Under the pieces are notes generated by a model. The model worked only from the letters and a program-made list of their open reading frames with translations, was not told the origin of the DNA and searched no databases. DNA of 5,538 bases, taken from the sequence record NC_007825.1. The stretch is one strand, 5' to 3'. Made by a program: the position numbers and the translations under genes. Below, piece after piece: positions 4-5,538 of the stretch; the stretch's first letter is position 1; each line of letters begins with the position of its first letter. This DNA is from Escherichia phage ID52.

Positions 4-33
4 TTGACTAATACTCAATCACCACTCTAATAT
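4..33 (+). promoter_or_regulatory. Candidate sigma70 promoter upstream of gene A (pA-like)
   Basis: TTGACT at 4-9 and TAATAT at 28-33 separated by 18 nt, in the H-A spacer just upstream of A. Position matches the known pA location in phiX174-type phages. Sequence-only prediction. Confidence 0.45.
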
Positions 34-58
34 GCCTCCCATCAAACGGAGGCTTTTC
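34..58 (+). terminator. GC-rich hairpin plus T-run in H-A spacer (TH-like terminator/attenuator); stem includes the gene A Shine-Dalgarno
   Basis: GCCTCC (34-39) pairs perfectly with GGAGGC (48-53) around an 8-nt loop (40-47), followed by TTTT (54-57) and then the A start codon at 59. The 3' arm contains the GGAGG that serves as the A ribosome-binding site. Confidence 0.4.
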
Positions 59-1723
59 ATGTTTAAAACTCATTCTGACTACTTCAATAAACCAAACATC
101 GACGCAATCAAACCACTCGTCGAAACTGCTGGTATGTCTGTTCTTACTCAGTCTCCAAACCTCCGTATCTGGAAACAGTGCAATACTCGTATCAAACTTC
201 TTGAAGAAATCCTTGCTCATTATACGAATGGTATTCGCCGTGATGATAATGGTGACTTCTGGATGAATCCAAACTCTCAACTCGCAACCACTATTGCCTA
301 TCGTGCCCACCAAAAAGGCCACAATCCTAAATTCAAACAATACCCAGAGTCGTTTACTCTGGATGACATTATTACTGGCAAACCAATCCCTCAAACCGCC
401 CCTGACGAATTACAACTCTCCGATGAAATCGGTGAAGACTACCGTCTTACAGTCCTCTCCATAATCGAAGAACTGCAAGAATGTTACGATGTGCTCGGAC
501 AACTTGATATTAATAACACTATAGACCACAAACCCCTTGGTAATACTCACTGGGACTTACTCTATGAAAAACCCGTATACAAACATTGGACTCAACTCGT
601 TTCAAAACGACCCCTTAAAGATATCCGCGCCGATTACAACTATGCAAAGGCGAAGGGTATTAAGGATGAATGCTCAAAAATCTTGGAGGAATCTACTATG
701 AAGTCCCGTCGTGGATTTACCGTCCAAAGATTGATGAATGCTATGCGTACAGCCCATACTCAGGGCTGGTATGTGGTATTCGACACTCTTACCCTAGCCG
801 ATGACCGCTTAAAGGATTTCTATGATAATCCCAATGCTCTTCGTGACTACTTCCGTGGTATTGGTCGTATGGTTCTTACTGCCGAGGGTCGCTCGGTGCA
901 TGAGTCATCTGCCGACTGCTATCAGTATTTTTGTGTGCCAGAGTATGGTACACAGCACGGTCGTCTACATTTCCACGCAGTGCATCTTATGCGCACACTT
1001 CCTTTGGGTTCTCTGGACCCTAACTTCGGTAAGTTGGTACGCACTAATCGGCAAATAAATAGCTTGCAAAACACGTGGCCTTATGGTTACTCTATGCCCA
1101 TCGCAGTCCGGTACTCCCAAGATGCTTTCTCTCGTGCTGGCTGGCTCTGGCCTGTGGATGCAAAGGGTGAACCCCTTAAAGCTACCTCGTATATGGCTGT
1201 AGGCTTCTACGTTGCTAAATACGTTAATAAAAAATCAGATATTGACATGGCCGCAAAAGGCCTAGGGAATAAAGAATGGAACAATTCGCTCAAAACCAAA
1301 ATCAACCTCATACCCAAGAAGGTGTTCAGAATCCGAATGTCCCGCAACTTCGGAATGAAGCTACTCTCAATGGCTCACCTGTCAGCGGAAACTCTGATGG
1401 AACTGACCCAAGTGGGCTACGACGTGACCCCGTTCAACAACATCTTGAAGCAGAACGCCAAGAAAGAGCTCAAATCGAGGCTGGCAAAGAAATCTGTCGC
1501 AGACGTTTTGGAGGCGCAACCTGTGACGACCAATCTGCTAAAATTCATGCGCAATTTGACCCGAACAATCGGAGTGTCCAGCCTACAGAGTTTTATCGCT
1601 TCAATGACCACGAAATTATCAAGTACGGATATTTCTGATGAAACCAAAACTTACGTTGCTGATGCAGGAATTGCTGTTGCTAACTTACGAATTAAATCGA
1701 AGTGGACTGCTGGTGGAAAATGA
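59..1723 (+). CDS. A: Replication initiation protein A (HUH rolling-circle endonuclease)
   Basis: ORF 32..1723; preferred start is ATG 59, preceded by GGAGG (48-52) at 6-nt spacing, giving 554 aa. Strong recalled similarity to phiX174/G4 protein A along the whole length, including HFH (nt 968-976) and [10 protein letters not shown] with catalytic tyrosines (codons 1208-1210 and 1220-1222). Contains the origin sequence at 500-529. Confidence 0.92.
500..529 (+). other. Viral (+) strand rolling-circle origin; protein A nick site between G506 and A507
   Basis: Exact match to the conserved 30-nt Microviridae origin as I recall it, CAACTTGATATTAATAACACTATAGACCAC, located inside gene A and encoding ...[10 protein letters not shown]... 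Confidence 0.88.
698..1723 (+). CDS. A*: Protein A* (in-frame internal restart within A, C-terminal 341 aa)
   Basis: In-frame ATG at 698 (STM-KSRRGF...) at the position homologous to the phiX174 A* start; predicted 341 aa, the same length as phiX174 A*. Whether it is expressed cannot be read from sequence. Confidence 0.65.
1276..1638 (+). CDS. B: Internal scaffolding protein B (overprinted inside A in a different frame)
   Basis: 120-aa [11 protein letters not shown]...[10 protein letters not shown]...[15 protein letters not shown], matching recalled phiX174/G4 protein B, including the [10 protein letters not shown] motif and aromatic C-terminus. Stop TGA 1636-1638 overlaps the K start. Confidence 0.9.
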
Positions 1724-4524: not shown

Positions 4525-5538
4525 ATGCTTGGTTCTGTCGTTGGTGGTATCGCCTCCGCTCTTGCTGGAGGCCTTACAGGTAAATTATTTGGCGGCGGTC
4601 AGTCCGCCAATTCCACCGGAGTGCAAGGTAATATTCTTGCCTCTGACAACAATGTTATTGGTGCTAATGATGCTGGTATTAAATCTGCTATTCAGGGTTC
4701 TAGCCTCCCTAACTTTAAAGAGGCTGCCCCCTCTGCTATCTCTGGGATTCTTGCCGATTCTGGCAAGCATGCGCTCTCGTCTCTTACCAATGCTGGTACA
4801 AATAAACTCATGGAAGCTGTCGGCCTTTCTAAGTCTGCCTCTGATAAGGGCAAGGATACAAAAGACTATCTTGCCGCCGCATTCCCCGAGCTCAACGCAT
4901 GGGAGCGCGCAGGTGCTGGTGCTTCTGGTGCAGGCATGCAAGATGCTGGCTTCCAAAATCAGAAAGAGCTAACCAAGATGCAGCTTGACAATCAAAAGGA
5001 AATCGCTAAGATGCAGAACGAAACTCAGAAGGAAATCGCTGGGCTTCAATCTATCACTTCACGCGAAAATACTAAGGATGCTGTCTATGCTCAAAATGAA
5101 ATGCTCGCGTATAACCAAAAAGAGAGTATGTCACGCGTTGGCGCTATTCTCGAAAACACAAGCCTCACCAAACAACAACAAACTTCTGAAATTATGCGGC
5201 AGATGCTTACTCAGGCTCAGACCACGGGTCAGCATTTTACAAATGAGCAAATCAAGGAGCTTACGCGAAAAGTTGGCGCTGATATTGATGCTGTTCGTGC
5301 TAACACTGAACGCACCCATGTAGAAACTGACCGCTCAAAACAGGAGGTTCAAAACTCCCGTTACGCTTCCTCGCAGGTAGGCAAAACCGCTAAGGACGTT
5401 TCCAATGCAATTACTGATACAGCTAGTTCTATTGTTGATTATTTTCGTGGTGTTGATCAAAAAGTGGCAGACGTTTACAACAACTATTTCAAAGATGGCA
5501 AATCGAAAGGAATAGAATCCAATCACCGTTCCAAATAA
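4525..5538 (+). CDS. H: Minor spike / DNA pilot protein H
   Basis: 337-aa ORF, Gly/Ala-rich N-terminus ([10 protein letters not shown]...KLFGGGQ), central [18 protein letters not shown] and [23 protein letters not shown] coiled-coil region, matching recalled phiX174/G4 H. AAGGA at 4513-4517, 7 nt upstream of the ATG. Stop codon is the last 3 nt of the window. Confidence 0.95.

Follow-up and report, generated by a model that had tools for sequence, protein, structure and literature searches.

The question raised by this locus is from which promoter gene B of Escherichia phage ID52 is transcribed, and whether a pair of hexamers inside gene A could be that promoter. A sequence-only reading had put the pair forward as a low-confidence candidate for pB, the internal sigma-70 promoter of phiX174-type microviruses. 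The placement is supported by comparison with phiX174, and the homology lifts the confidence from low to high: positions 1064-1100 of ID52 are, with a probability of roughly 85%, the G4-clade counterpart of pB. The feature is the already known pB promoter, and the original comparisons of G4 and phiX174 by Godson and colleagues reportedly noted the conservation of the phiX174 promoters. No promoter is annotated at pB in the records of G4, NC6, ID11, ID12, ID8, FL68, PJNS002 and vB_1081, and the searchable literature yielded neither transcript 5' ends nor polymerase-binding data for G4-like phages.

The window, i.e. the whole stretch of DNA analysed, is the complete 5538-nt genome of ID52 (NC_007825.1), a G4-like microvirus (Microviridae, Bullavirinae, Gequatrovirus). 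Full-length identity is 98.6% with Shigella phage vB_1081 and 98.2% with coliphage NC6; with ID12, ID8, NC2 and ID11 the identity is about 93%. The segment 900-1400 shares 95.8% identity with G4 and about 79% with phiX174. The reading frames of ID52 agree with the annotated genes A, A*, B, K, C, D, E, J, F, G and H of G4 and NC6. Three of them surround the site:

59..1723, + strand: gene A, the replication initiator, which contains the pB site (open reading frame 32..1723; the start at 59 follows the annotation of the G4 clade)
from 698: A*, placed by comparing the reading frames with annotated G4 and NC6
1276..1638, + strand: gene B, the internal scaffolding protein, an open reading frame of 120 aa and the first gene that pB would serve

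The coordinates of gene B correspond to annotated B in G4, NC6, ID12, ID8, ID11 and FL68. The in-frame ATG of gene A at 32 falls inside the region of the pA -10 and terminator, and the clade records start the gene at 59. Further downstream, shortly before gene D begins, ID52 has 9 bases (at about 1958-1966) that NC6 and vB_1081 lack. This insertion falls within the pD leader and the C-terminal end of gene C; the gene C frame of ID52 ends at 1983 and not at 1974, and the insertion explains the genome length of 5538 as against 5529 nt.

The pB promoter of phiX174 is given as 4863..4899 in Table 1 of a modelling paper that compiles literature values (PMC11527146), and both NC_001422 and J02482 carry a 'transcription start site' at 4899. 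Positions 1030-1130 of ID52 align without gaps to phiX174 4829-4929 (89% identity, offset 3799), and phiX174 4863..4899 falls on ID52 1064..1100 with 34 of the 37 bases identical. The earlier proposal that pB is placed as in phiX174 was thereby borne out, the alignment giving an exact, gapless counterpart of 4863-4899. According to the open reading frames and the annotation of G4 and NC6, the site 1064-1100 lies on the + strand inside gene A and upstream of the B start at 1276. Its parts, read from ID52, are these:

1064..1069, + strand: the pB -35 hexamer TTGCAA, 4/6 to TTGACA, in Leu-Gln codons of gene A, equivalent to phiX174 4863-4868
1070..1087, + strand: the pB spacer of 18 nt, the same length as in phiX174
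1088..1093, + strand: the pB -10 hexamer TACTCT, 3/6 to TATAAT, in Tyr-Ser codons of gene A, aligned to phiX174 TACAGT at 4887-4892
1100, + strand: the start (A) of B mRNA predicted by homology, aligned to phiX174 A4899
1101..1275, + strand: the remainder of the predicted 176-nt pB leader (1100-1275), within the coding region of gene A/A*

In the phiX174 sequence itself, TTGCAA (4863-4868) is separated by an 18-nt spacer from TACAGT (4887-4892), and six further bases lead to A4899. ID52 shares with it the location in gene A and the frame, the TTGCAA hexamer, the 18-nt spacer and the stretch ATGCCC before the start, so that A1100 stands 6 nt past the -10. Both phages share the first eight transcribed bases, ATCGCAGT, and the distance of 176 nt from the start site to the B ATG (1100 to 1276 in ID52, 4899 to 5075 in phiX174). 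In the spacer the two differ by one synonymous change, AAC in ID52 as against AAT. Initiation is mapped for phiX174 pB, whereas in ID52 the start at A1100 is predicted from homology. The sequence-only reading had correctly located TTGCAA at 1064-1069, and the pair does lie about 185 nt upstream of B as it had estimated, the -10 ending 183 nt before the ATG at 1276. Its coordinates for the -10, TTACTC at 1087-1092 or TACTCT at 1088-1093, were also accurate; the register that corresponds to phiX174 is TACTCT with an 18-nt spacer, and not TTACTC with 17.

The only difference between the hexamers of the two promoters is in the -10, where ID52 has TACTCT with the Ser codon TCT and phiX174 has TACAGT with the Ser codon AGT. 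ID52 lacks the A-9 of phiX174, and the match to the consensus falls from 4/6 to 3/6, one match fewer, which makes it plausible that pB of ID52 is somewhat weaker than that of phiX174. A stronger form of this view is that the site, although it corresponds to pB in position, has little or no activity in G4-like phages, its bases being conserved only through their coding for a constrained part of protein A; B mRNA would then arise mainly by read-through of transcripts begun at pA, or at some other start. We regard this as unlikely, although the loss of A-9 and a -10 of just 3/6 speak for it. The hexamer had been called a poor match, which is correct as a count; however, the three positions retained, T-12, A-11 and T-7, are the most conserved ones, the first two being supplied by the Tyr codon TAC and the third by the Ser codon TCT. 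Moreover, the region 1000-1275 offers no better candidate for B. The pair at 1064-1093 is the sole one there with T-12, A-11, T-7 and at least 7/12, and the earlier failure to find a better hexamer pair in the same interval was reproduced by a scan for TAnnnT pairs. TATGGT at 1082-1087 was considered as a -10 and rejected, as its -35 would be ATAGCT, which is unusable (5.0 bits), and it would shift the start upstream by 6 nt from the base that is mapped in phiX174 and conserved here.

In terms of consensus strength, the layout of a sigma-70 promoter is present at 1064-1093 (two hexamers, a spacing within 16-19 nt, A-11 and T-7), and TTGCAA-18-TACTCT scores 4/6 plus 3/6, i.e. 7/12. Such a score is no better than chance: 54 equal or better sites (at least 7/12, TAnnnT, spacer of 16-19 nt) occur on the + strand of ID52, compared with 44.6 +/- 8.0 expected from first-order Markov simulations. 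A consensus scan of ID52 with a cut-off of 9/12 did not return the pair at 1064-1093, and at this cut-off the mapped pB of phiX174, which reaches 8/12, is overlooked as well. In a crude position-weight score, which is indicative only, the ID52 site ranked 45th of 5551 + strand positions and lay about 2.2 bits below phiX174 pB, which ranked 18th of 5399. The hexamer pattern by itself is uninformative, and it is homology on which the proposed assignment to pB stands. The second-ranking position in the crude score, TTGACA-16-TAAGAT (10/12), is at 4985-5012 on the + strand inside gene H, where no promoter is known to be placed.

Two further promoters of phiX174 have counterparts in ID52, and a terminator follows the first of them:

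4-33: pA counterpart, TTGACT-18-TAATAT, 9/12, conserved in position with phiX174 pA
34-53: conserved terminator hairpin, GCCTCC...GGAGGC-TTTT, directly after pA
1907-1936: pD counterpart, TTGACA-18-TATTAT, 11/12, aligned to phiX174 TTGACA-18-TACTAT at 320-349

Like pB, pA and pD belong to a constitutive transcription scheme that depends on host sigma-70, and their positions are conserved between phiX174 and ID52. Since these two are present besides the pB site, the phiX174 transcription layout appears to be conserved as a whole. Both are far nearer to the consensus than pB. They also differ from it in their setting: pA is found in the interval separating gene H from gene A, and pD within the portion of gene C that encodes the C terminus, whereas pB alone lies deep inside gene A and is made from a conserved protein motif. 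The hairpin at 34-53 also bears on the possibility that B is served mainly by read-through, as pA overlaps the terminator. In phiX174 the combined pA-terminator element gives a net loss of transcription (Logel and Jaschke). On account of this overlap and of the net loss in phiX174, read-through from pA alone would be expected to give little B mRNA.

Conservation within the G4 clade was assessed in 14 genomes, comprising database records and variants from IMG/VR and metagenomes. Positions 1064-1069 and 1088-1101 are invariant at every base in all 14, and the TTGCAA hexamer is invariant also across all copies of phiX174 examined. Over 70 nt around the promoter G4 (NC_001420), NC6, ID11, PJNS002 and vB_1081 are 100% identical to ID52, and the other Gequatrovirus genomes, ID12, ID8 and FL68, differ from it only at synonymous sites of the spacer or flanks. 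As a background, 64% of the degenerate third positions vary among the 14 genomes in the part of gene A without B overlap. Against this all 4 third positions in the hexamers are constant (P about 0.016, assuming independent sites, with few sites and related genomes), while variation occurs at 4 of the 5 synonymous third positions of the spacer (one-sided Fisher P = 0.04, again from few sites in related genomes). Constrained hexamers next to a free spacer are the pattern that a working promoter would leave, and we take it as supportive rather than decisive; invariant hexamers with varying synonymous sites in the adjoining spacer also argue against a site that has become inactive in this clade.

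A divergent member of the G4 clade from a metagenome (OBLN01002562.1, 5539 bases), whose gene A is about 84% identical, retains the two pB hexamers unaltered but has additional synonymous changes next to them (AGT, GGA, ATT). When viral and metagenome collections were scanned with a degenerate protein-level pattern, no different codon appeared in the -10; the matches were mostly sequencing-control copies of phiX174, and only four further G4-clade variants were among them. One metagenome contig (FUFK010037421.1, 327,964 bases) contained multiple matches within one locus exactly 5386 bases apart. It appears to be a long phiX174 concatemer, most probably an artefact of assembling sequencing-control DNA.

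Across the promoter, phiX174 and the G4 clade encode the same gene A peptide, and the identity of this protein motif accounts for much of the nucleotide conservation, a point in favour of a site that is weak or inactive. So is the size of the synonymous excess: 9 of 11 synonymous codons in the promoter are identical to phiX174, compared with 56% in gene A without B overlap, which is a modest excess. The third-position identity between ID52 and phiX174 is 0.80 over 1040-1099 and mostly 0.2-0.65 elsewhere in gene A without B overlap. Three local peaks stand out in this part of the gene, at 1040-1099, at the origin (470-529) and at 830-949. The 30-base phiX174 origin of viral-strand synthesis, CAACTTGATATTAATAACACTATAGACCAC, was found at ID52 500-529 without a mismatch and coincides with a third-position peak of 0.90. 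Over 830-949 the third-position identity to phiX174 is 0.80-0.85, with runs in which 13 of 13 synonymous codons are identical. The conservation there exceeds that of pB and is comparable to that of the replication origin, and the proteins are nonetheless not identical there, with several residues changed. The block is overlapped by an ORF in another frame (822..1058, 78 aa), and its conservation could be due to recombination between clades, to an RNA or DNA element, or to chance.

The alpha3 clade (alpha3, WA13, NC35; at about 1590-1630) has TTCCGT ... TTCACG at the aligned bases, which contain no promoter-like hexamers, and its protein A differs at this position (F-R-G-M-W-P-Y-G-F-T-Q-P). On these alignments the pB site is common to the phiX174 and G4 clades and not to the whole subfamily. 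That the site is not universal in the subfamily is a further point for its being weak or inactive in G4-like phages. As the alpha3 clade lacks the hexamers at the pB position, its B promoter, if any, must be elsewhere.

A different holoenzyme might also be considered. The bases CTTGCAA at 1063-1069 resemble CTTGAA, the -35 element of sigma-32, but by eye no CCCCATNT-like -10 was seen 13-17 nt from CTTGCAA in ID52. A heat-shock promoter read by sigma-32, as Zhao et al. proposed for PB of phiX174, is in our estimation very unlikely here. In phiX174 gene B mRNA was 85% higher at 42 degrees C, and the phiX clade conserves a sigma-32-like motif that overlaps the sigma-70 site of PB (Zhao et al. 2012, PMC3335065). 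The similarity of that motif to the sigma-32 consensus is, however, low by the authors' own account (PMC3335065).

The remaining candidate, TTGACA at 1242-1247 as the real B promoter of ID52, can practically be dismissed, as the sequence-only reading had rightly done: it is a perfect -35 and together with its best -10 partner, GGGAAT at 17 nt, reaches 9.1 bits in the crude score, more than the site at 1064, but GGGAAT lacks the essential A-11, initiation some 7 nt past 1270 would coincide with the B ATG (1276) or follow it and leave no ribosome-binding site, and phiX174 has TGGACC there, the hexamer not being conserved across clades.

With 1064-1100 as the counterpart of pB, host sigma-70 RNA polymerase would bind TTGCAA, the 18-nt spacer and TACTCT on the double-stranded replicative form and would initiate on the + strand at A1100. 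The resulting mRNA would begin with the 176-nt leader in A/A*, pass through B, K and C and continue into D-J-F-G-H, to be ended by leaky terminators. By this arrangement pB would allow scaffolding and structural proteins to be made in abundance independently of replication protein A, which is scarce, raising the transcripts of B and, with pD, those of the structural genes far above the level of A. For phiX174 a 2.5-fold gain in transcript abundance at pB was obtained by RNA-seq (Logel and Jaschke), and the A:B:D transcript ratio is about 1:6:17 (Zhao et al. 2012, as cited in a later work).

The value of the assignment is in annotation, as the B promoter is unmarked in the G4-clade records examined and was overlooked by the consensus scan. 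A functional promoter within a coding sequence can look like a chance-level match and be recognisable by homology only. The coordinates (-35 at 1064-1069, -10 at 1088-1093, start at 1100) may serve the modelling or re-engineering of expression in G4-type phages. The finding of pB as such raises no new biological question. A mildly interesting point is the switch of Ser codon family in the -10 with T-7 preserved: an interchange of AGT, found in phiX174, and TCT, found in the G4 clade, needs at least two base changes, and both codons keep T-7. It is conceivable, though we hold this tentatively, that selection on the promoter steers the choice of codons in the conserved motif of protein A, or that the G4 clade has set pB weaker. 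In the latter case the ratio of replication to scaffolding transcripts in these phages would be unlike that of phiX174.
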